Shown here: positions 25,529 through 35,757 of the stretch, one piece after another
Numbering within the stretch: position 1 is the first letter of the stretch
Layout of the letters: every line of letters starts with the position of its first letter
Origin: a virus
Lineage: Duplodnaviria; Caudoviricetes
IMG/VR virus record: IMGVR_UViG_3300006169_000009
Coordinates: 32,001-96,000 of that record
Direction: 5' to 3' (one strand)
DNA length: 64,000 nucleotides
The notes under the pieces: model-generated
Databases searched by the model: none
What the model was told of the DNA's origin: nothing
Seen by the model: only the letters and a program-made list of their open reading frames with translations
Position numbers and translations under genes: made by a program

Positions 25529-26733
25529 CAGTCGAGCCAGATCCGCGACTCGTAGGTCACGAACCCGACTTCAGGGTCGATGAAGTGCAGGCGCTGACTC
25601 GGCAGTGAGGTGCCTGCGACGAACTCTCTGGCGTACTCGTTGTCGGACTCGGTGGACCCGGCCATGTAGACCGATCCGCCGTTGGCCATGTTCAACGTCA
25701 TGTTTTGGTGGTAGTGGCCGATGTACATGTCCCGGAAAGGCTCGGTGACCCCGCTGGCCCAGGCGTTTGCCTTGCGGACGATGCCGTAGGCCGGGGTCTG
25801 GCCGCCGAAGGACTTGATCTCGTCACCGTGGACGGCGATGGCGTTGTAGTTGCCGACCGAGAAGTGCTGGTACCAGTCGTCGGAGACCTGGAAGTTCTTG
25901 ATTCGCTTCTCGTGGCGCAGCCGGTCCTTGACGATCTGGTAGATGATGCGGTCGACGTTGTCGGAGGGCTTGTAGTTGTCCGACTTCTTGCCGATTCGCC
26001 CGTGGTTGCCCCACTCACAGACCACATCGACGGTCTCGTAGGTCTCCAAAGCCTGCTTGATGACGTATTCCTCCAGCGCCACGGTCGCGAAGACCTGCTC
26101 GAAGAGAGTTGCGTCGACCTCCCACTCCTGACCGGGGAAGATGCAGGCTCCTTCGAGCATGTCACCGGTCAAGAGCACGATCCCGTGCCGTACGGGGTGG
26201 TCGGCGCGCATGATCTCGGTGATCTGCTGAGCCTTGGAGACGTACTGCTTGACCCGGCGCTCGCAGACGGCACTGTCGTAAGTCGACGTCACCTTGCCGT
26301 TCTGCCAGTCGGTCAGGTGCCACAGCGCGACTTCGGCGGTCTTGTTCTTACGACGGTCGGCCTTCGGCTTGGGAGCGACGACAGCCGCTGTCGCCTCGGC
26401 GGCGTCGTGGGAAGCGTCGTAGACGGCCTGGATCAACTTCGCGCCGCGCTGCTTGGACTCACTCAACTGCTTGAACAGGCGGGCATTGGCCTCTCGATAC
26501 GCGACGACCTGATCTTCGGGACTCAACGTCTCCTCGACGTCCTCGACGTCGCGAATGACGGGAGCCTCGGGCGCTTCCGTCGCACCGTTGGCCGGGAACC
26601 GGCCCCGGTACCGTCGCACGGACGCCTCAGAAGTACCCAGCCGGGTCGCCGCCTCGTAGTTGTTGACGCTTGCGTCGGCCAGAAGCGCCTTGACGTCATC
26701 GTCGCTCTCGGCGCGCTGGAAGATGTTGGGCAT
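25528..26733 (-). CDS. Calcineurin-like metallophosphoesterase / nuclease with N-terminal HTH
   Basis: HLTDWQ, GDMLEG, GNHGR, HGD and GHYH motifs. Confidence 0.85.
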   Translation of the reverse strand: MPNIFQRAESDDDVKALLADASVNNYEAATRLGTSEASVRRYRGRFPANGATEAPEAPVIRDVEDVEETLSPEDQVVAYREANARLFKQLSESKQRGAKLIQAVYDASHDAAEATAAVVAPKPKADRRKNKTAEVALWHLTDWQNGKVTSTYDSAVCERRVKQYVSKAQQITEIMRADHPVRHGIVLLTGDMLEGACIFPGQEWEVDATLFEQVFATVALEEYVIKQALETYETVDVVCEWGNHGRIGKKSDNYKPSDNVDRIIYQIVKDRLRHEKRIKNFQVSDDWYQHFSVGNYNAIAVHGDEIKSFGGQTPAYGIVRKANAWASGVTEPFRDMYIGHYHQNMTLNMANGGSVYMAGSTESDNEYAREFVAGTSLPSQRLHFIDPEVGFVTYESRIWLD

Positions 26734-26764
26734 CGTCTCTCCAGTCGTAGGTGTCAGGGCGACT

Positions 26765-26896
26765 CTATCTCGATGGGCGGACAGGCGCAACCCTAGAGTG
26801 GAACTCGATCTCGTGGAGGTACAGGTCGGTATAGCCCTGCGCGTCGTCCTCGACGTCCTCGGACCAGTCCTGTTGCGGGCACTCGAAGTGCTTCAC
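26765..26896 (-). CDS. 43-aa hypothetical protein (not in the ORF track)
   Basis: GTG KHFECPQQDW... with a GGAG RBS. Confidence 0.4.
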   Translation of the reverse strand: MKHFECPQQDWSEDVEDDAQGYTDLYLHEIEFHSRVAPVRPSR

Positions 26897-26930
26897 CCTT
26901 CAACCGTACTCCTAGTCCGATATAACTAGC

Positions 26931-26963
26931 AAGACCCCGCCCGGGTGGTTCCGGGACGGGGCC
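26931..26963 (-). terminator. Intrinsic terminator-like hairpin
   Basis: GGCCCCGTCCCGG-AACCA-CCCGGGCGGGGTC followed by TTGCT. Confidence 0.5.
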
Positions 26964-27091
26964 TCACTGTTCATTCTGTCAACTCAATAATCTCTACGTC
27001 CTGTGGTGCGGTATGGCCTAGACCATGAGTCTGCCCTCCTGGTTGACGACTCGGCGTCTTGTTACCAAGATAGAACCGCCAGGCCGGGCTG

Positions 27092-27340
27092 TCAACCCTC
27101 CTGGATGTACCCGCGTGCAGCACCGTCGATACGGGCCGCCGAGAGCGCGCAGGCGGTAGGGCCAGAGCCCCAGCCACGCTCCTGGGTGGTGACCTTGGAG
27201 CCAGCGCGCATGGCGTCGGAGAGGGTGTACTTGGTCAGCACGCCCATCTCGATCTCACCCAGTTCCGCCTTCAGGGCCTGGGTCGCCTCCGGCCAGATCT
27301 CCTCCGTGGTCTTGGGAGTCTGCTTCTCCGTGGTGCTCAT
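27092..27340 (-). CDS. Hypothetical protein
   Basis: MSTTEKQ... with a GAGG RBS. Confidence 0.65.
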   Translation of the reverse strand: MSTTEKQTPKTTEEIWPEATQALKAELGEIEMGVLTKYTLSDAMRAGSKVTTQERGWGSGPTACALSAARIDGAARGYIQEG

Positions 27341-28385
27341 CTGCTTCCTCACTTTCAGGGTTCTGGAACGACAGGTCACAGTCTAGCGTCTCCAGCCAGT
27401 CTGCGATAGCCTCTCGCGTCCACTTGTGGGTGTCGTTGAGATGCACGACTAGGTTGACGACGTAGTTGGTTCTGGGCATGGAACAGAACGTCTTTCCCTT
27501 GTTCTTGCGTACCGGACACTTTGCCTTGGCGGTCTTCAGCGCAGGGATGGCCTTGACCAGTGCCCCGGTCATCGGGTGGTCCTCGTCGGTGTAAGAGGCT
27601 CCGCTATTGGCGGTGTACGGCGTCAACTTCGCCTGGTCTGGCGTGATGGTCTTCTTGGGCTTGTACTCGCCCTTGTGGACCACCAGCGGGAGCGCGTGGT
27701 CGAGGTTCGGGATCTGGTTGGATACCGTGGTGGGGGTCAGCAGACCCTCGATGAGAAGGTCGACAGCGGCCTCAGCCTGATGCTGGGCCAGACCGTGCTC
27801 CATCACGAGCCAACCGATCAGTTCCTGGGGATCGGTGGTGCCTACATGGAAGTGGAACTTCTCCGGGTCCTCATCCACCGGCTCCTCCATCTCGATGTTC
27901 GGGCTGCAGTTGTCGTAGGCAGTGAACGTGCCCATCTGTCGAAGAACGTGGACCTGTTCAAGAGTGTCCTGGACAGCCTCCCAAGGCTTGCCGTCAGTCC
28001 AGTCGCACACGAATACGATCTTCGATCCTGGTCGAAGACCGCGCAGTCCTCTCGGGTGATAGACGAACTTCGCGTCCAGATTCGTGCGAAGGTTGCGAAC
28101 CTCACACCACAACTTGAAGCAGTTGTAGTTCATAGCCACGACGTAGTAAGGCTCGGGGGTGCGGAACAACTTCAGGCCCAGCAGGTTCTCCCACGTGTCG
28201 TGCTTGTGGGTGTTGGGCTTCATGTCGATGAGGACCTTCAGGCTGGCGTGCTGCGCAGGAGTCATGACGAAATCAACCGATCCACCAGTCTGGTGATTAG
28301 AGACAACCCCGCCGTACTTGTAGTCCTTGTATCCGACGGGCTTCCATGGCGAGGAGATCTGGTACAAACCATAAGACTGGGACAC
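27255..28385 (-). CDS. Hypothetical protein with a C-terminal HLND..WTRE.IADWL phage motif
   Basis: GTG start after GAGGAAG; the longer track start runs through the tmRNA-like gene. Confidence 0.65.
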   Translation of the reverse strand: MSQSYGLYQISSPWKPVGYKDYKYGGVVSNHQTGGSVDFVMTPAQHASLKVLIDMKPNTHKHDTWENLLGLKLFRTPEPYYVVAMNYNCFKLWCEVRNLRTNLDAKFVYHPRGLRGLRPGSKIVFVCDWTDGKPWEAVQDTLEQVHVLRQMGTFTAYDNCSPNIEMEEPVDEDPEKFHFHVGTTDPQELIGWLVMEHGLAQHQAEAAVDLLIEGLLTPTTVSNQIPNLDHALPLVVHKGEYKPKKTITPDQAKLTPYTANSGASYTDEDHPMTGALVKAIPALKTAKAKCPVRKNKGKTFCSMPRTNYVVNLVVHLNDTHKWTREAIADWLETLDCDLSFQNPESEEADEHHGEADSQDHGGDLAGGDPGPEGGTG

Positions 28386-28414
28386 TGCTTCCTCTCTCGT
28401 GCGCGTGGTGGGGT

Positions 28415-28431
28415 ACTCAACAGTGGAGCCA
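28415..28431. repeat. Trailer arm of the 17-bp inverted repeat bracketing the tRNA operon
   Basis: ACTCAACAGTGGAGCCA is the exact reverse complement of 31947..31963. Confidence 0.9.
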
Positions 28432-28432
28432 G

Positions 28433-28510
28433 TGGAGATGGCGGGACTCGAACCCGCGTCCGCCGTCAGTCCGCATGCGGTCTTCCGACGTCGAACTACC
28501 ATGCATCCCC
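28433..28510 (-). ncRNA. Mini-tmRNA (tRNA-like domain only)
   Basis: GGGGATG/CATCTCC-A acceptor with G3:U70; D-loop without a stem ending TTCGAC; P2 helix; GAC-GCGGG-TTCGAGT-CCCGC T-arm; no tag ORF. Confidence 0.75.
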
Positions 28511-28694
28511 AGGTGTGGGATTAGGACCGTGGCTTCCGGCCCGACACCCACGACGGAGAAAAGGAGTGTCCGTCACACCCCCGCCCATATAGCAGGACGG
28601 ATGCCCCTGCGTTTCGTCACGCTGATGCAGGGTTCGCGGCCAGTGATTATCGCTCACAGGATTCAAGCGCCTGGGAGCCACCCAGGAGTCTGTG

Positions 28695-28877
28695 TCAGCG
28701 CCGACGGCCCTGACAGGTGTTGAGGTGACCCAGCAAGGCCGGGCCGCCGATCTTGATGAACGCCCCGCAGTGCCAGGGGCAGGCCCCGGTAGTGCGCTTG
28801 ATGCCCATCTTCTTCATGTACGCGGCCATCTCCTGGTCAGACTTGGAGCGCGTGCCACGACGGTCGTTTGCGGACAT
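28695..28877 (-). CDS. Small Zn-binding protein
   Basis: CPWHC...HLNTC; GGAAGGA RBS. Confidence 0.65.
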   Translation of the reverse strand: MSANDRRGTRSKSDQEMAAYMKKMGIKRTTGACPWHCGAFIKIGGPALLGHLNTCQGRRR

Positions 28878-28957
28878 TGGCAGTCCTTCCTATGAGTAGT
28901 TACCTACTCATGGAGACCACCAGCCTTTCCAGAGAACACTTGTCTCCTCTCGTGGGA

Positions 28958-29104
28958 CTACTTCTTGCGGCCCTTCTTGGCCTTCGCCTTCTTGGCGTCG
29001 GCGTTGCTGATGGCCGCAGCCTTGGACTTGCTCATGCCCTTGGCCTTCAACGCGTCGTACTCCGAAGGCTTCTTGATGCTCGGGCCGTGATCCTTACCTG
29101 GCAC
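28958..29104 (-). CDS. Small basic protein of an actinobacterial family (MPGKDHGPSIKKPSEYDALKAKGMSKSKAAAISNA)
   Basis: GTG start after GAGGAGAAGG; motif also seen in host-type small proteins. Confidence 0.7.
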   Translation of the reverse strand: MPGKDHGPSIKKPSEYDALKAKGMSKSKAAAISNADAKKAKAKKGRKK

Positions 29105-29138
29105 TGTCCTTCTCCTCTCAGACATGGCCAGTGTAGCG

Positions 29139-29211
29139 AGCCCCTGACAGGATTCGAACCCGCATTTCGCCTGAGTCGTATTCAGGTGCCTCTCCGTTAG
29201 ACTACAGGGGC
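29139..29211 (-). tRNA. tRNA-Arg(ACG)
   Basis: Cloverleaf; anticodon arm CCTGA-ATACGAC-TCAGG. Confidence 0.85.
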
Positions 29212-29212
29212 G

Positions 29213-29286
29213 TGGAGATGCTTCCCGGAGTCGAACCGGGGTGAACGGGTTTGCAGCCCGCCGCCTAGCCTCTCGGCCAAAGCATC
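29213..29286 (-). tRNA. tRNA-Cys(GCA)
   Basis: GCGGG-CTGCAAA-CCCGT; U73; CCA encoded. Confidence 0.92.
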
Positions 29287-29290
29287 TCGG

Positions 29291-29374
29291 TGCAGGGTGA
29301 AGGACTCGAACCTCCAAGGTCAGATGACACCTGGTTTACAGCCAGGGACGCTACCAGTTACGCTCTAACCCTGC
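29291..29374 (-). tRNA. tRNA-Tyr(GTA)
   Basis: CCTGG-CTGTAAA-CCAGG; long variable arm. Confidence 0.9.
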
Positions 29375-29376
29375 GG

Positions 29377-29451
29377 GGTGGCGGACGGCCCTCGAAGCCG
29401 CTAATCGACAGATTCACAGTCTGCCCGCTCGTCCACTTCGCGTTCCGCCAC
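29377..29451 (-). tRNA. tRNA-His(GTG), atypical
   Basis: GCAGA-CTGTGAA-TCTGT; C73; non-canonical T-arm and position 8. Confidence 0.75.
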
Positions 29452-29453
29452 AG

Positions 29454-29524
29454 TGCTCCCAGAGGGATTCGAACCCCCAGTCACGGTGTGTAAGACCGAT
29501 GGTTTGCCGTTAACCGACAGGAGC
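29454..29524 (-). tRNA. tRNA-Val(TAC)
   Basis: TCGGT-CTTACAC-ACCGT. Confidence 0.88.
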
Positions 29525-29595
29525 AAACGGGCTTGGGGTGTCGACTGGTCCCCGCTTCACGGATTCAAACCGATGGACGAGCCCCGCGCCCAACG

Positions 29596-29667
29596 CGGTG
29601 AGTACGGGGATCGAACCCGTGGCCTTCCGGCTGACAACCGGCTGCGCTGCCTCTGCGCCAACCCACC
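29596..29667 (-). tRNA. tRNA-Asp(GTC)
   Basis: GCCGG-TTGTCAG-CCGGA; G73. Confidence 0.88.
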
Positions 29668-29672
29668 TAGCG

Positions 29673-29746
29673 TGGAGAATGAGGGACTCGAACCCTCCAG
29701 GCCGCGATCTTGCAAGGATCGCCCGGGTAACCCGTGCCCATTCCCC
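29673..29746 (-). tRNA. tRNA-Ala(TGC)
   Basis: G3:U70 acceptor; CGATC-CTTGCAA-GATCG; weak D-arm. Confidence 0.8.
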
Positions 29747-29747
29747 T

Positions 29748-29823
29748 TGGCTGATCTGGTAGGACTCGAACCTACAACCCCCTGATTAACAGTCAGGTGC
29801 GCTGCCAATTGCGCCACAGACCA
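29748..29823 (-). tRNA. tRNA-Asn(GTT)
   Basis: CCTGA-CTGTTAA-TCAGG; G73 and CCA. Confidence 0.93.
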
Positions 29824-29828
29824 ATGAG

Positions 29829-29901
29829 TAGCGGTGACGGGATTCGAACCCGTAGTACCCAGATTATGAGTCTGGCGTGTTGCCGATTACACCACACCGC
29901 G
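29829..29901 (-). tRNA. tRNA-Met(CAT)
   Basis: CCAGA-CTCATAA-TCTGG; C1:U72 mismatch. Confidence 0.88.
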
Positions 29902-29906
29902 ATGCG

Positions 29907-29979
29907 TACGCCCAGTAGGACTCGAACCTACAACCCTCTGATTAAGAGTCAGATGCTCTACCAATTGAGCCATAGGCGC
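29907..29979 (-). tRNA. tRNA-Lys(CTT)
   Basis: TCTGA-CTCTTAA-TCAGA. Confidence 0.93.
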
Positions 29980-30077
29980 ATGTTGCTGACTTGCCCAACA
30001 AGGTTGTGCCACGTTGTTGGCGCTTCCGCAGGGCTAGGCACGTTAGAGCCCCCGCACCGACTGTCAGCGAGCCGTCG

Positions 30078-30151
30078 TGTCCTCGGAGGGACTTGAACCC
30101 CCAACCTGCAGGCTCTCGACCTGCCGCCTCTGCCGATTGGGCTACGAGGAC
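30078..30151 (-). tRNA. tRNA-Leu(GAG), short variable arm, C33
   Basis: GCAGG-TCGAGAG-CCTGC; A73. Confidence 0.8.
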
Positions 30152-30228
30152 AAGCCCGGACGTCTCCGGGTCGTTCTCATTACGTCGGGTGGCTCCACAC
30201 CGGCTCGTCAGCCGGGATCACCCGAGGG

Positions 30229-30302
30229 TATCCGTGGAGGGACTCGAACCCCCAACATCTTGATCCTGAATCAAGCGCCTCTGCCAGTTGGACTACACGG
30301 AC
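30229..30302 (-). tRNA. tRNA-Leu(CAG), short variable arm
   Basis: CTTGA-TTCAGGA-TCAAG. Confidence 0.88.
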
Positions 30303-30389
30303 ATGCGTGGGGATACCATTCGCCCCACCACCAGGCTCTACAATCCCATTCCACCTCGGCTCCCGTAGGCTTCGGCCCTGGCCCTTACG

Positions 30390-30473
30390 CGGAGAGAGCA
30401 GGATTCGAACCTGCGGGACGCGAGGCCCACTGAGTTAGCAACTCAGCGCAATAAACCGCTCTGCCACCTCTCC
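30390..30473 (-). tRNA. tRNA-Ser(GCT)
   Basis: CTGAG-TTGCTAA-CTCAG; long variable arm; G73. Confidence 0.9.
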
Positions 30474-30549
30474 TGGACCCCCCAGCAGGATTCGAACCCG
30501 CAACGCCCGGCTTAGAACACCGTCAGTCTATCCGTTGACCTATAGGGGG
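30474..30549 (-). tRNA. tRNA-Arg(TCT)
   Basis: ACGGT-GTTCTAA-GCCGG; CCA encoded. Confidence 0.82.
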
Positions 30550-30553
30550 ATAG

Positions 30554-30628
30554 TGCGCTGCTCAGGGCTCGAACCTGAAACATCCGGGGTTTGAATCCGG
30601 CACCTCTGCCAAATTGGGTCAGCAGCGC
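30554..30628 (-). tRNA. tRNA-Leu(CAA), short variable arm
   Basis: CCGGA-TTCAAAC-CCCGG. Confidence 0.82.
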
Positions 30629-30747
30629 GTGTGCGAGTCTGCAAGCGCACTCGGCGCGTTATCGGTGCTTCACGTACCGTCGTCAGGCCAAAGGCTTCTT
30701 TCCCTCTTCCGTCGAAGAGGATCGAGAACGGTAACTTGCAGACCCAG

Positions 30748-30831
30748 AGGAGGGTAGAGGGTTCGAACCCCTGCCCCGAAGGACACTCCAGTTTTCTAGA
30801 CTGGTCGCCAGCCACTCCAGCAGTACCCTCC
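30748..30831 (-). tRNA. tRNA-Ser(AGA)
   Basis: CCAGT-CTAGAAA-ACTGG; long variable arm GTCC-TTCG-GGGC. Confidence 0.8.
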
Positions 30832-30835
30832 GAAG

Positions 30836-30908
30836 TACCCCCAACGGGATTCGAACCCGTGTTAGCGGCTTGAAAGGCCGCCGTCCTAGTCCACTAGACG
30901 ATAAGGGT
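30836..30908 (-). tRNA. tRNA-Glu(TTC)
   Basis: GCGGC-CTTTCAA-GCCGC. Confidence 0.92.
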
Positions 30909-30909
30909 A

Positions 30910-30985
30910 TGGCAGTCCGTGCGGGAGTCGAACCCGCGTCACCTGGCTGAGAACCAGACATCCTGGGCCACTAGACGAACGGACC
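30910..30985 (-). tRNA. tRNA-Glu(CTC)
   Basis: TCTGG-TTCTCAG-CCAGG; CCA encoded. Confidence 0.92.
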
Positions 30986-31050
30986 AAGTGCTGTGGCTTG
31001 TCGGACCAGAGCATGAGTCAGCAGGCCCGAGTGGACCTCCAACACCGGAG

Positions 31051-31124
31051 TTGGGGTGGCAGGGCTTGAACCTGCGCATCCGTGCTTATCAGGCACGAGC
31101 CTTGACCGACTTGGCTACACCCCA
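31051..31124 (-). tRNA. tRNA-Ile(GAT)
   Basis: CGTGC-CTGATAA-GCACG. Confidence 0.88.
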
Positions 31125-31129
31125 TCGCG

Positions 31130-31201
31130 CTCCTCCCCAAGGACTCGAACCTCGACCGGATGAATCAGAGTCACCCGTGCTGCCAATTACACCAAGGAGG
31201 A
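31130..31201 (-). tRNA. tRNA-Gln(CTG)
   Basis: GGTGA-CTCTGAT-TCATC; U1:A72; G73. Confidence 0.9.
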
Positions 31202-31307
31202 AAGACGCGGACCCATGGCACTACATGGGCTACCCGCTCTGACCACCCCAGGTCTGCACCGTCCTCTGTGCAGTGTTCAGGCGAGGACACCTTGGGGGAG
31301 TGCGCAG

Positions 31308-31381
31308 AGCCTCGTGGAGGATTCGAACCCCCAGCGCGCTGATTACTAAACAGCCGTTCTGCCAGTTGGAACTAACGAGGC
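31308..31381 (-). tRNA. tRNA-Thr(AGT)
   Basis: GCC acceptor start; GCTGT-TTAGTAA-TCAGC. Confidence 0.82.
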
Positions 31382-31455
31382 ATGCGTACCGTGTTCGCGA
31401 AGGGCGGTACAACCCCTCCTCTAGAACGCCGCTTGTGCGACGGTGCGATCATACG

Positions 31456-31527
31456 AGCGCCGCAGGGGACTCGAACCCCCACCCTATGCTTGGAAGGCAT
31501 CGATGCTGCCATTAACACCAACGGCGC
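31456..31527 (-). tRNA. tRNA-Gly(TCC)
   Basis: GATGC-CTTCCAA-GCATA; U73. Confidence 0.88.
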
Positions 31528-31713
31528 GTGTGTCGGGGACGCAGCGCGGAAACGAGGGGCGTGATCAGTCTCTCGCATGGACCTTGCTTCGCCAGGAGGC
31601 AGCGTTGACGCCCCCGACTTTTATCACCATGACCCAACCCTTCGGTTGAGTAGTTGAAGCGCGGAGTGGAAGACATCCGCCGTGGGGGCGTAGTTTGTGG
31701 CCCCGCGCTTCTG

Positions 31714-31786
31714 TGCCGCCCCGAGGACTCGAACCTCGGCCTCCCGGTTTTCAGCCGGGCGCTCTACCTGTTGTCGCTAGAGCGGC
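31714..31786 (-). tRNA. tRNA-Phe(GAA)
   Basis: CCCGG-CTGAAAA-CCGGG. Confidence 0.88.
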
Positions 31787-31845
31787 ATGAGCGGGTCTAG
31801 GGTTGTCGACACTTAGCCCCATCGAGGGGGACTCTAGGCCCGCAG

Positions 31846-31919
31846 TCTGAGTGGGAGGATTTGAACCCCCGACCTCCTGAACCCAAATCAGGCGGCATAC
31901 CTGGCTTGCCTACACTCAG
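31846..31919 (-). tRNA. tRNA-Pro(TGG)
   Basis: CCTGA-TTTGGGT-TCAGG. Confidence 0.9.
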
Positions 31920-31946
31920 ATCGACAGGGCTTGGCAGGCCCTGTCA

Positions 31947-31976
31947 TGGCTCCACTGTTGAGTTCTCAATGTGCAA
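31947..31976 (-). promoter_or_regulatory. rrn-type boxA / conserved leader and leader arm of the 17-bp stalk
   Basis: TTGCACATTGAGAACTCAACAGTGGAGCCA matches the actinobacterial rrn leader consensus TTGAGAACTCAA(C/T)AG. Confidence 0.75.
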
Positions 31977-32022
31977 GTGGTTCGGGCTTCCACCTCCCGG
32001 CTTCTTGCCCGCCCACGAGAAG

Positions 32023-32052
32023 ACCTTAGCGCCGCCCAGTTCGGCCTGTCAA
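32023..32052 (-). promoter_or_regulatory. sigma70/SigA promoter of the tRNA operon
   Basis: TTGACA-N18-TAAGGT. Confidence 0.75.
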
Positions 32053-32064
32053 GAGGTCTTCTAG

Positions 32065-32139
32065 CCCCGGTGTGAGGAATCGAACCCCAGCAGCAAGAGT
32101 TTTGGAGGCTCTCCGTCGTACGCCACCGACTGCACCGGA
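32065..32139 (-). tRNA. tRNA-Trp(CCA), upstream of the operon promoter
   Basis: AGAGC-CTCCAAA-ACTCT (C:A mismatch); G73. Confidence 0.75.
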
Positions 32140-32209
32140 TTGAAGGATGACACTGCTTCGGTTTACCACGGGTCTTACGCGGTCTCTGTGCCTAGAGACG
32201 GCTGCCCTG

Positions 32210-32335
32210 TCAGAACTGGTTCTTGTCCCAGGAGGTCGACGCGAGCATGCCGCCGACCGGTCGGTGACCGGTGGCTTCGCGAATGCTCTCGAACGTCATG
32301 AGACCAGGCTACGCCCACTCCGGCTGTAGTGTCAA
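32210..32335 (-). promoter_or_regulatory. Promoter TTGACA-N18-TAGCCT with a leaderless 29-aa ORF (ATG 32299)
   Basis: -35 at 32330-32335, -10 at 32306-32311, ATG 6 nt downstream: MTFESIREATGHRPVGGMLASTSWDKNQF. Confidence 0.5.
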
Positions 32336-32896
32336 ATGCCAGAGGTCGATCTTCTCCGCGAACTCCTTCAGGCCGGTCACGCGGTACCTCGCAGGCCAGT
32401 CCTCGTTCTCGTTCCAGGGCCGGTTGACGAGGTAGGACGGAACCCCGAACGCACTGACAGCGGTCGTGTTGCGCACGTGGTCGTCTACGAAGGCATCCAG
32501 TCCCAGGTTGTAGGCCACGGCTCCCTTCTTCTGCGTAAAGTGCAGGGAGTCGTGAGGAATCGCCTTCTTGCGCAGCCACAGGCGCGTGTGCTCGCGGATG
32601 AGGTCACCGTCCTGGAAGTAGCCTCGGGCGGTGATCAGGTGGATCTTGTGTCCCCGGCTCTTCATGCGCCGTAGGGCGGCCACGGCTCCGGGTACCACCG
32701 GCAGGTCGAGCAGGTAGCCGCGCAGCAGCGCCTTGTGCAGAGTGTCGTACCAGACCTGGTCCTTGCAGCCGTACTCCTCGTAGGGGGTCCAGGTGCGCGG
32801 GGTGACACCGTTGGTAATACCGGCTTGGACGCAGGCGTCGTGGCTACCGTAGTACCACTCCGCCACGACGTCATCGATGTCGACGCCGATGTGCAT
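32309..32896 (-). CDS. 5'(3')-deoxyribonucleotidase (HAD)
   Basis: MHIGVDIDDVV, LITAR, TRLWL, FVDD. Confidence 0.88.
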   Translation of the reverse strand: MHIGVDIDDVVAEWYYGSHDACVQAGITNGVTPRTWTPYEEYGCKDQVWYDTLHKALLRGYLLDLPVVPGAVAALRRMKSRGHKIHLITARGYFQDGDLIREHTRLWLRKKAIPHDSLHFTQKKGAVAYNLGLDAFVDDHVRNTTAVSAFGVPSYLVNRPWNENEDWPARYRVTGLKEFAEKIDLWHLTLQPEWA

Positions 32897-32897
32897 G

Positions 32898-35757
32898 TCA
32901 GGCTCTCTTCGTCGTGCCCTTCCGGGCGGTGGTGGCAGGCTTGGCCGTGGTCTTCTTGGCGGGCCTGCGGCGCTGCCGTGTCTTGGTAGCGTCCACCAAG
33001 GTAACCACACTGAGGGTGAACTCGTCAATCTTCCACAACTTGCGCCAGCGGATCGTACCGTCAGGAGTGGTGATCTGGATGTACTCGCGCTCCAGTGCGC
33101 CGGAGAAGATCGGGTCGTACAGCGCGTGGGCCTGAGCCAGCGTCTGCACGATGTCGAACGTCTCGCTGGTCCCGTCCTCATACCCGAGATACAGTCGGGT
33201 TCCGGTCAGGGCTTCCATGGCCCCAGGATACTCCTCAGAGGGAGCCGTCGGCTACCCCGTCGATGAAGTGGTCCGGGCTCGGAGGCGACTCGCTACCCTC
33301 CGTAGCGAAGGCTACCCACCAGCGCTTGCGCACAGCGACTTCCTCGGGGTCCATCTCGGCCCCGGCGGCACCATGTGCGAAGTCAGCCAGTCGCATGCCT
33401 CTAGCGTACAGGGTCGACCAGTGAAGGCCGTGGTCTTACAGTCGGCCTGTTCAGGCCAGAGGCTTCAGCAGAGCACGTGCAGTGCCCGCCTCGGTACGGG
33501 AAGCGCTTCGGGCAGCCCTGGAGGTGGAAGGTGACTTCCATCCCCCGTTCCTGCCACGGGGTTTGCTTGGTCGTCATGTAGACCATGGTAGTCCTTTCGG
33601 TCTATGCGCTGATGAAGGTGTCATAGTCGTCAGGCGGCTTTGGTCTACGTCCGCCCTCGATGTACTGGTCAGCCTTCCAGATCCCGCACATGAGAAGCCA
33701 GAACGAAGTGAAGATCAGCGCCACTGCCACCTTACCCAGCAACTCGCTCTGCAGCAGCCCGGCGAACCAGATCACCGCGATCAGCGCGCCCATGGCTACT
33801 GCCGCGAATCCGAAGTAGGGGTTGGTGGGTGGTTCGAAGCGGGTACGGCTAGGGAGTCGGGTTCTCATGAGCCTCTCGTAGTTCCTTCTGAGCATCAACC
33901 ACGGCCTGCAGCGTGATGGCGTTGTTGGCCGCCGTACGCCAGCGCTCGTACCAGAAGTCGCGGTCGTCCTCTAGTTCACTGATGGTGGGCTGGATGGCCT
34001 CTTGGATGGACCGGGCCAGGGTACGGTCGTTGTACCCGGCCTCGAACAGCACCAGGCTCGGGAGGGTCCGAAGGATGGTTTCGGTCAACTCATCCTTGTT
34101 CACCGGCATTGGCACGGTTTACCTTCTTTCGAAGCCACTTGCGCATGAGACGCTCAGGCGTCGGTGTCAGGGCGAGGTGTGCCCACTGGATCCACGTCAT
34201 TGTGATCGTCCTCTCGCAGAAGGCGAGCCTTAACCCTACGGTACGCCTCGATCTTCTCGTCCACGTCGTGTACATCGGGGTTACCCCGCATACGCTCGAA
34301 CCAGGAGATGTCGCGGTCGATCTGCTTACGCAGAGTAGTCACGATCTGACGTACACCGCGCTCGACCTTGTCCTCGTCGTAGTCCGCGATGTCAGGCAGT
34401 TCAGTGGGCCGCCTTAACTTCCGCAGAAGTTTAGGCGACTCCCAGAACGAGCCAGCGTCGAACTCGATGCTCACAGAAGCACCATCCCCAGGACCAGGGC
34501 GATGACTAGCACCGACAGGACGGTCTGATAGACACGAGCGATACGCAGGCTGGTGCGCAGCCGGTCGACCTCACGGGTCTGCAGCGCTACCCGGCTCTGA
34601 GAGGCCAGGTACCGCTCGTTCTCCCGCTTCCAGTTGGCGTGTGCGGTACGACGCTGCCCGCGCATGAAGTTCATCTCGCGAGAGTGCTTCAGCCCAAAGA
34701 CCATCTGGTCGCGGGCGTACTCCTCGGAGAGATCACCTCGCACCTTCCCGAAGTCGTAGACGATGTCGCGGAAGGTCTTGTTGAAGTAGGCGGTCTCTTC
34801 CGGCGGTACGGACGGCAGTGGCTCAGCCATGGGTTTCCTCTCGGGTGGGTGCTACGAGCCTACTGGAGGAATGGTGCTCTGTCCAGGGACGTAGACGGTT
34901 TCAGTAGTGATCCGGCGTACCCGGAACTCCCAGCCGCTGTCGTGACGCTGGCTGAACTCGAAGCGCTGGCTGCAGACCGCAACCGCCTCTTCGTAGTAGT
35001 AGCGCGAATCGGTACCTCGCCACATACGGTGATGCTCGATGTGATCGTTGAGGTTGCGGTGCTCGACCGTGTAGTACTCCTCGCGGTCACTTCCAGCGGA
35101 TTCGGGCGGCGTTGAAGCCTGAAGCATGGTCTCCACCGTGTCCTCTCTTCCTGGTGCAGTAGCGCCACTGCTCAGCGTCGTACATGTCCTCGCAGCGGTC
35201 GTTCATGTGTGGCTGGACGGAGAATGCCATCTCCTGGTCGATCAGGAGGTTCTCGGCCTTGCGAGCCTGCTCCTCCATGTCCTTGGCCCAGGCTTCGAGC
35301 CACTCCAGGAAGGCGAACTCCGACACCAGCGGTAGGGTCTCGGGCTTATCCATACCGCAACGGTAGCGGCTCTCCTACTTGCTGTCTAGGGGTCGTACCC
35401 AGGAAGGGCACGGACATCCGTCGATCCGGCAGAACCCGTGCGGCTGCTGATGGTCGATGCGCTCATGATCGCAGTCGGAGTTCGCACACCGGATCGACCA
35501 GCGTGCGGTCATCCCGTTGGACTTCCTCGTCACTTCGCCGGGACTTCCTCGATTCGAAACACGTCGAGGGTCTTAGGTTCGACCCGGAACTGCTGGGCCA
35601 CATGGTTGATGGCCTTCTGGCCCGCGTCCTTCTCGTTGAAGGCCCACAGGTTGTACGACCCCTGCAAGCCGTCAGGCTCGCTGCTGGGCTCGTACACGAT
35701 GACGCTGTACTCTCTCATGCCACGACTCCTCATCGCCTGCTCGGTGAACGCCAGCAT
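32898..35757 (-). other. Run of small hypothetical CDSs (32898..33218, about 33235..33396, 33401..33586, 33602..33898 membrane, 33849..34115, 34154..34474, 34471..34830, 34852..35136, 35087..35353, 35530..35757)
   Basis: Tightly packed co-oriented ORFs, many with coupled start/stop overlaps. Confidence 0.6.

Follow-up and report, generated by a model that had tools for sequence, protein, structure and literature searches.

We examined a stretch of 64,000 nucleotides (nt), called the window here, which comprises bases 32001-96000 of a 106,055-base-pair (bp) record of an uncultured virus, and which carries on its minus strand a large operon of transfer RNA (tRNA) genes. It is likely, in our judgement, that this tRNA operon, from a phage of actinobacteria, copies the leader and trailer signals of host ribosomal RNA (rRNA, rrn) operons and is processed like precursor rRNA, and its 3.5-kilobase (kb) RNA is probably made and excised as cells treat ribosomal RNA. 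The record has a guanine-plus-cytosine (GC) content of 63% and is rated complete by CheckV. All coordinates at the locus are window positions and all features lie on the minus strand; tRNA genes were placed with ARAGORN and Rfam, and open reading frames (ORFs) were assigned to families with Pfam. The elements that carry the argument are the following:

31977..32016, minus strand: leader hairpin between a promoter-like site and boxA, homologous to a host rrn leader (predicted fold)
31964..31974, minus strand: boxA-like 11-mer GCACATTGAGA (by-eye alignment)
31969-31955, minus strand: 15-mer TTGAGAACTCAACAG, preceded by GCACA (sequence)
31947..31963, minus strand: leader (5') strand of the long-range helix, ACTCAACAGTGGAGCCA (sequence, complement search, cofold)
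31923..31945, minus strand: 8-bp hairpin between the leader strand and tRNA-Pro (predicted folds)
28415..28431, minus strand: trailer (3') strand of the long-range helix, TGGCTCCACTGTTGAGT (exact reverse complement of the leader strand)

The two strands of the long-range helix are 100% complementary (17/17 pairs), lie 3515 nt apart and form the only perfect pair of 17 nt within 26000-35000. When a 12-kb region was scanned for complements of the leader arm, the trailer ranked at the top (score 34, against 20 for the next best), and 0 of 200 shuffled arms reached the observed score in the same region. The trailer begins 2 nt past the discriminator A of a gene resembling transfer-messenger RNA (tmRNA), and the top match of the scan lies 1 nt past the end of the block. 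Cofolding of the leader, the tmRNA remnant and the trailer keeps the 17-bp helix, leaves the tRNA-like domain folded and the boxA-like element single-stranded, and yields a dimer 20.6 kcal/mol more stable than the pieces folded separately. Upstream of the helix, the approximately 45-nt leader that follows the promoter-like site is predicted to fold as a hairpin; the predicted hairpin at 31923..31945 has no U tract and hence is not terminator-like. An exact search for the 17-mer in 596 gigabases (Gb) of genomes returned 24 matches in unrelated contexts, about the number expected by chance, and none of the 24 lies in an rrn leader; the whole arm was therefore not copied from any representative host leader.

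The 15-mer is an rrn 16S-leader element of Actinomycetes. It is present as an exact match in 323 of the 401 genomes that we sampled from this class, in numbers that resemble rrn copy numbers, and a control made by reversing its letters gave 0. Among 30 sampled loci, all 26 that reach the 16S start carry the 15-mer 130-265 nt upstream of a conserved word from the 5' end of 16S (the stored DNA of the other 4 ends before the 16S gene), and its context in hosts is gcgtccgNtccTTGAGAACTCAACAGcgtgc. The CL2 motif of mycobacterial rrn leaders has been described as a putative BoxA antitermination element (PMC10218544). Aligned to the consensus GYTCTTTAANA (PMC5725501), the phage 11-mer GCACATTGAGA agrees at 8 of 11 positions, with the limit that this consensus is gamma-proteobacterial and may not show which bases actinobacterial NusB/NusE need. 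Agreement with the host boxA GTTCCTTGAGA is likewise 8/11, and the six bases at the 3' end are identical. The alignment to GYTCTTTAANA puts the boundary of boxA after base 6 of the 15-mer, whose last 9 nt begin the helix strand. The tallies of host genomes took in some flagged as unpublished (G267, G011, G040, G034, G047, G028, G019, G308, G036 and G377), and so did the 30 leader examples, with one (L154, from G267); no claim depends on those genomes alone.

The likeness to host leaders extends beyond the 15-mer. A search with the 141-nt phage leader against the 401 genomes gave one clear match, in G068, with 82% identity over 55 nt (E 1.2e-6), and, G068 aside, no clear match in this set. The matching sequence is an rrn leader, where the conserved 16S word follows the motif at a distance of 182 nt, and the alignment spans both the phage leader hairpin and boxA, such that about 40 nt upstream of the motif are homologous. 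From this match it follows that the phage leader is derived from, or shaped like, a host rrn leader. The pairing is alike as well: in three complete host operons, with rRNAs identified by Rfam, the leader ..ACTCAACAGCGTGCC pairs with the 16S-23S spacer GGCACGCTGTTG(A/G)GT, and the hosts have a further copy, TTGAGAACTGCACAGTGGACGCGAGC, ahead of 23S, whose partner is the 23S-5S spacer. Of these two types, the phage core belongs to that of the 16S leader, and the phage helix keeps the register of the host pre-16S helix, both beginning at ACTCAACAG. The phage trailer, CTGTTGAGT.CCC, resembles the host spacer strand CTGTTGAGTTCCC, and G.U pairs are found in the host helices too. The host operons displayed (G341, G035, G175 and G068) are outside the unpublished-flagged set.

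These results bear on a sequence-only reading that had been made of the locus. It had reported TTGACA-N18-TAAGGT, the leader motif and the 17-bp pair between 31963-31947 and 28431-28415, and all are present as described. Its statement that actinobacterial rrn leaders carry the motif and pair with a downstream spacer holds for the 323 genomes and the three complete operons respectively, and the alignment to host leaders that it had proposed succeeded in the case of G068. Its boxA has to be redrawn: the 15-mer is indeed an rrn element, but boxA proper is GCACATTGAGA and the final 9 nt of the 15-mer belong to the helix.

Relatives were sampled from IMG/VR by way of the exact 15-mer, and longer stretches of each were then compared. 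The motif scans found many high-GC contigs; in low-GC viral contigs the 15-mer is about as frequent as chance predicts. In six further lineages the motif precedes a tRNA array, and in five of these a complement to the leader follows directly after the last gene of the block:

G002: 30 tRNAs; trailer right after the stop of an ORF of about 30 amino acids downstream of the last tRNA
G003/G004 (162 kb, complete): 38 tRNAs; trailer 3 nt after the last tRNA
G406 (106.9 kb): 28 tRNAs; trailer 5 nt after the last tRNA, with two G.U pairs and one A.C
G005: 37 tRNAs and a full tmRNA; trailer right after an HNH endonuclease ORF behind the tmRNA
G407 (100 kb, complete): tRNAs and a full tmRNA; trailer 25 nt after the tmRNA, pairing as 11+7 bp around a 1-nt bulge
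G408: contig ends after 4 tRNAs, short of any block end

The nearest of these lineages by its proteins is G407, whose trailer is missed by the ungapped complement scan owing to the 1-nt bulge and was found by placing the block end at the tmRNA. In four lineages the top-scoring complement of the entire locus lies at most 133 nt past the block end. The position and complementarity of the trailers are independent of the search by the 15-mer. The distal parts of the arms differ in all six lineages and have matching partners in each case (GGAGCCA, GGTAGATAGC, GGTGAGCA, GGAACACG, GGGAAACACCG and GGATGAGTGTGC), and in an all-against-all matrix of duplexes the best partner of every one of the six leaders is its own trailer (mean -36.8 kcal/mol, against -22.4 kcal/mol for mismatched pairs). 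The G.U pairs, the bulge and the lineage-specific arms fit selection on an RNA helix and not on protein-binding DNA repeats. As judged from these sequences, the comparison points to a helix that is under selection as RNA and that is neither a chance pairing nor a DNA repeat. The proposal that the phage copies the rrn design is supported by the homology of the leader, the trailers in five lineages and the compensatory changes in arms specific to each lineage.

Between the two arms, and just beyond them, lie the following features:

29138..31919, minus strand: 24 tRNA genes (Pro 31919 ... Arg 29138) with spacers (ARAGORN, Rfam)
28958..29125, minus strand: small ORF, DUF7218 (Pfam PF23855, E 9.2e-15)
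28695..28877, minus strand: ORF of 60 amino acids with no Pfam match (ORF list)
28433..28510, minus strand: mini-tmRNA, tRNA-like domain only (Rfam RF00023, 54.5 bits)
27255..28385, minus strand: next gene, 376 amino acids, with no Pfam family (translation, Pfam)

Rfam finds only tRNAs and the tmRNA fragment in the window and no enclosed rRNA gene; the block is a mimic of rrn signals and no rrn operon. The mini-tmRNA matches model positions 1-374 within 81 nt; it has no pseudoknots and no tag reading frame, and ARAGORN calls no tmRNA. The G3.U70 pair, the UUCGAC motif and the T arm are retained. The mini-tmRNA may be chargeable with alanine, but from its sequence we conclude that it cannot tag proteins. 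Full-length tmRNAs stand in its place in G407 and G005. The DUF7218 ORF probably starts at a GTG at 29104, behind GAGGAGAAGG. The 60-amino-acid ORF carries a C-x3-C ... H ... C pattern, and its protein may bind zinc. Other cargo is seen at the ORF position in the loops of relatives, namely the HNH endonuclease of G005 and the hydrophobic peptide of about 30 amino acids of G002. The sequence-only reading had listed 24 tRNAs, a mini-tmRNA and two ORFs within the pair, and this content is as we find it, with the correction that a 25th tRNA (Trp, 32139-32064) lies outside the loop. Its description of a noncoding polycistron holds in that the RNA is mostly untranslated, and has to be qualified by the two ORFs inside and by the lack of a terminator-like site before the next gene. 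That gene starts 29 nt past the trailer, behind the ribosome-binding site GAGAGAGGAAG, and a terminator scan, whose terminator-like matches are at chance level, gives no such site between the trailer and the gene. A homologue of the 376-amino-acid gene follows the tmRNA and trailer in G407.

Ahead of the leader, and downstream of the 376-amino-acid gene, we find promoter-like sites and one more tRNA gene:

32306..32335, minus strand: promoter-like site TTGACA-N18-TAGCCT at the end of an NT5C-like gene, ahead of tRNA-Trp (genome-wide rarity)
32064..32139, minus strand: tRNA-Trp(CCA), next to the leader on its upstream side and not enclosed by the loop (ARAGORN)
32023..32052, minus strand: promoter-like site TTGACA-N18-TAAGGT, with TTGACA at 32052-32047, an 18-nt spacer and TAAGGT at 32028-32023 (sequence, genome-wide rarity)
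27067-27095, minus strand: third promoter-like site with a perfect TTGACA, TTGACA-N17-TATCTT, just downstream of the 376-amino-acid gene

The pattern TTGAC[AGT]-N16-19-TANNNT has only four sites in the 106-kb genome, all on the minus strand, and in three of the four, namely those ahead of tRNA-Trp, ahead of boxA and at 27095-27067, TTGACA is perfect. The -10 form TANNNT is typical of actinobacteria. A scan for E. coli-type promoters called none in 28000-33300, and it missed TTGACA-N18-TAAGGT because the -10 hexamer TAAGGT matches TATAAT at only 3/6 positions, although it fits TANNNT. The promoter proposed by the sequence-only reading is thus in place as sequence and is of a form that such a scan does not call. 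Of the relatives, G408 has an identical TTGACA-N18-TAAGGT about 70 nt ahead of the motif and G407 has TTGACA at a similar distance. The motif follows about 24 nt after tRNA-Trp in G002 and G406, and transcription must therefore start further upstream there. A promoter at TTGACA-N18-TAAGGT is plausible from these comparisons, though it is no fixed part of the design. The tRNA-Trp gene holds the same upstream place in G407, G406, G002 and G003/G004, with tRNA-Asn instead in G005, so that it lies directly upstream of boxA and outside the loop in 5 of the 6 lineages with a complete block (the window and L178, L181, L201 and L202). Where the leader has its 5' end may be determined by the processing of this tRNA. 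The promoter-like site is flanked by an 8-bp inverted repeat, GAAGACCT / AGGTCTTC, at 32054-32061 and 32019-32026 on the minus strand, which overlaps the -10 hexamer and could act as an operator or, in read-through RNA, as a hairpin.

By analogy with rrn operons we infer a promoter, loading of Nus factors, resistance to Rho and cleavage by RNase III at this locus, in the following course of events. Host RNA polymerase would start at the sigma-A-type TTGACA-N18-TAAGGT or read in from the tRNA-Trp gene, and the first 45 nt would form the hairpin that is homologous to a host rrn leader. The single-stranded boxA-like GCACAUUGAGA would then load a host antitermination complex based on NusB/NusE on the polymerase, which would traverse 3.5 kb of largely untranslated RNA without being terminated by Rho. 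The 17 nt that adjoin boxA on its 3' side would serve as the leader strand, the trailer emerging 2 nt past the last stable RNA gene, and with boxA tethered to the polymerase the leader strand would be held near the RNA exit until the trailer is made and the loop closes, as in the boxA-tether and leader-trailer helix model for E. coli (PMC10250234, PMC4807359). Host RNase III would cut the helix and free the tRNA block from the downstream messenger RNA, after which RNase P and 3' processing enzymes would release the tRNAs. Our search of the phage genome for RNase III and NusB genes found neither, and dependence on host enzymes and factors would therefore follow.

Several observations weigh against the reading of the locus as an operon that copies rrn signals and is processed like precursor rRNA. 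The virus is uncultured and its locus is known from sequence alone. The 5' half of the phage boxA, GCACA, differs from the host GTTCC at 3/5 positions and is variable among the phage lineages, and given this divergence the binding of NusB/NusE to it is not assured. The pre-16S helix of E. coli is reported to need more than 17 bp to work (PMC10250234), and a 17-bp helix is of modest length, at the short end for RNase III. Conservation of the 15-mer among the relatives is circular, the exact 15-mer having been the search query; G002, G406 and G003 have no promoter-like site at the corresponding position; and two protein-coding ORFs lie within the loop. The tRNA regions of three named actinophages, Streptomyces phage pSt2308, DSL-LC01 and Microbacterium phage Magritte, contain no boxA-like motif at up to 3 mismatches, and the design is therefore not general. 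DSL-LC01 (Actinomycetia phage) is the nearest named phage and is distant, with 48% amino-acid identity; megablast and blastn searches of the region against named phages gave tRNA-level matches only, and L187 (GC 50%), a relative identified through the downstream protein, has no motif.

The helix could also be real and selected, with a role in joining the two ends of the precursor and so protecting it from exonucleases or 5'-end-dependent RNases, or in insulating the folding of the tRNA block from the messenger RNA on either side, the boxA bases being mere carry-over from the copied leader. The helix and its covariation are seen without bearing on cleavage, the 5' half of boxA has diverged, and in E. 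coli the helix outweighs boxA or RNase III in its effect on active 30S subunits (PMC10250234), all of which this explanation would accommodate. We nevertheless regard it as unlikely, since the host-like 40 nt or so of upstream leader fit a working leader better than a lone pairing strand; that TTGAGA is outside the helix and yet identical to the host adds little weight, these bases being part of the query by which the relatives were found. Homology to a host leader, together with the resemblance of the trailer to the host spacer strand, would also be seen if an ancestor had captured a piece of a host rrn operon (leader and spacer) in which tRNAs replaced 16S and whose ends are functionless now. 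A fossil of this kind would decay, but each of six lineages has distal arm halves that have diverged from those of the host and of the other lineages and that are still complementary, and the trailer keeps to the block end even where a tmRNA, an HNH gene or small ORFs have been inserted. We therefore give it only a very small probability.

Two further explanations do without a processed RNA. Arrays of tRNA genes are often mobile, and a perfect 17-bp inverted repeat around a discrete 3.5-kb block might bound a tRNA cassette that moves or inverts, or be a site of recombination. Pfam recognises no transposase or recombinase among the loop ORFs or the flanking genes (an NT5C-like gene and one without a family), which speaks against a transposon or invertible cassette with terminal inverted repeats. 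One of the arms is moreover an rrn leader element that serves RNA pairing in hosts, and the arms of the relatives include G.U pairs and bulges and are unconserved between related elements, unlike ends that are bound by a transposase. The DNA-level explanation is in our view slightly less probable even than a decaying rrn fragment. Chance complementarity beside a chance match to the rrn motif could draw on the near-chance number of the bare 17-mer in 596 Gb and on the near-chance frequency of the 15-mer in low-GC viral contigs. The comparative data refute it, as the own trailer is the best partner in all six lineages and the best complement lies near the block end in four, and its probability is next to nothing.

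Compared with known systems, the phage operon is closest in sequence to the actinobacterial rrn leader, with which it shares the exact 15-mer, the pairing register, the CTGTTGAGT.CCC trailer, the leader hairpin and the type of promoter about 70 nt upstream. It differs in its loop, which holds 24 tRNAs, two ORFs and a mini-tmRNA over 3.5 kb where the host loop holds 16S over 1.5 kb, and in having a boxA 5' half and a distal helix half of its own. It also has a single boxA and a single helix and lacks the further set that precedes the host 23S, and the block runs on into protein genes. In E. coli the rrn antitermination complex involves boxB-boxA-boxC, NusA/B/E/G, SuhB and S4 (PMC10250234, PMC4807359). 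The order of hairpin, single-stranded boxA, leader strand, and trailer after the structural RNA is the same in both; the phage leader strand abuts boxA, whereas E. coli has a gap of 18-19 nt, and the phage boxA agrees with the gamma-proteobacterial consensus at only 8/11 positions.

A phage boxA RNA that recruits host Nus factors for processive antitermination is familiar from the lambda nut sites, where boxA-boxB acts with the N protein. The element here differs in copying a host rrn leader, in heading stable RNA genes and in being joined to a leader-trailer helix, which is absent from nut; an N-like protein or an N-binding boxB is not evident at the phage locus, with no search aimed at an N-like protein. 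Large tRNA blocks under rrn signals are also known from tRNA clusters that are cotranscribed with rRNA operons, appended to real rRNA genes. The phage has no rRNA genes and its tRNAs are themselves within the helix. Examples of such linkage are the tRNA clusters at rrnD and rrnE of B. subtilis (cited as reference B28 in PMC5966550). The dense arrays of 20-40 tRNAs described from genomes, plasmids and phages of Mycobacterium resemble the present block as arrays on a mobile actinobacterial element; the paper describing them makes no mention of promoter, leader, termination or inverted repeats (PMC5966550), and a framing by boxA and helix is outside the kind described. We found no description of a boxA or a leader-trailer helix on a phage tRNA cluster in the open-access literature.

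Leader-like sequences also occur on viral contigs away from tRNA genes. About ten viral contigs of about 50 kb (GC 65%) bear, some 700 nt in from one of their ends, 140 nt that nearly duplicate the promoter (-35 TTGACA, -10 TAGAGT), leader and boxA of a host rrn operon; downstream are protein-coding genes and no tRNAs. This set includes L204 (G410:40000-50165, reverse strand, motif at 690 of the reversed locus; G410 is 99% complete) as well as L026, L035, L075, L078, L188, L190, L196, L199 and L200. In the Streptomyces phage pSt2308 (L183), at about 1270-1290 on the minus strand, TTGAAAACTACACAGCGTGCC differs from the host leader motif by 3 mismatches and continues as in hosts; it occupies a gap between genes, upstream of minus-strand ones, at a great distance from the tRNA array and opposite to it. 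Tentatively, and with more doubt than confidence, we suggest a portable "rRNA disguise", made up of copies of an rrn promoter, leader and boxA and optionally of a trailer strand, which could be placed before any block of genes; the block would then be transcribed as rRNA is: fast, resistant to Rho, and with the loop closed by the boxA tether. Judged by their sequences, the contigs of about 50 kb look like a second use of this disguise, which may there be on an early operon.

Phage tRNA arrays are usually framed in terms of codon usage or of escape from tRNA-cleaving defences, and it is rarely asked how a phage gets several kilobases of untranslated RNA transcribed and processed. The present operon suggests an answer, in the borrowing of the host rRNA leader, boxA and leader-trailer helix. 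It offers a natural test of the boxA-tether model on a cargo other than the ribosome, in which RNA processing is separable from effects on ribosome assembly. A host-type boxA with a complementary trailer is also a signature by which phage tRNA operons can be annotated, and it may help to assign uncultured phages to host groups. If the rRNA disguise is true, the tRNA operon would be the first natural case of rrn chaperoning and looping on a non-ribosomal RNA of several kilobases, and competition for limited Nus factors could drain the host rrn operons and thereby help host shut-off.

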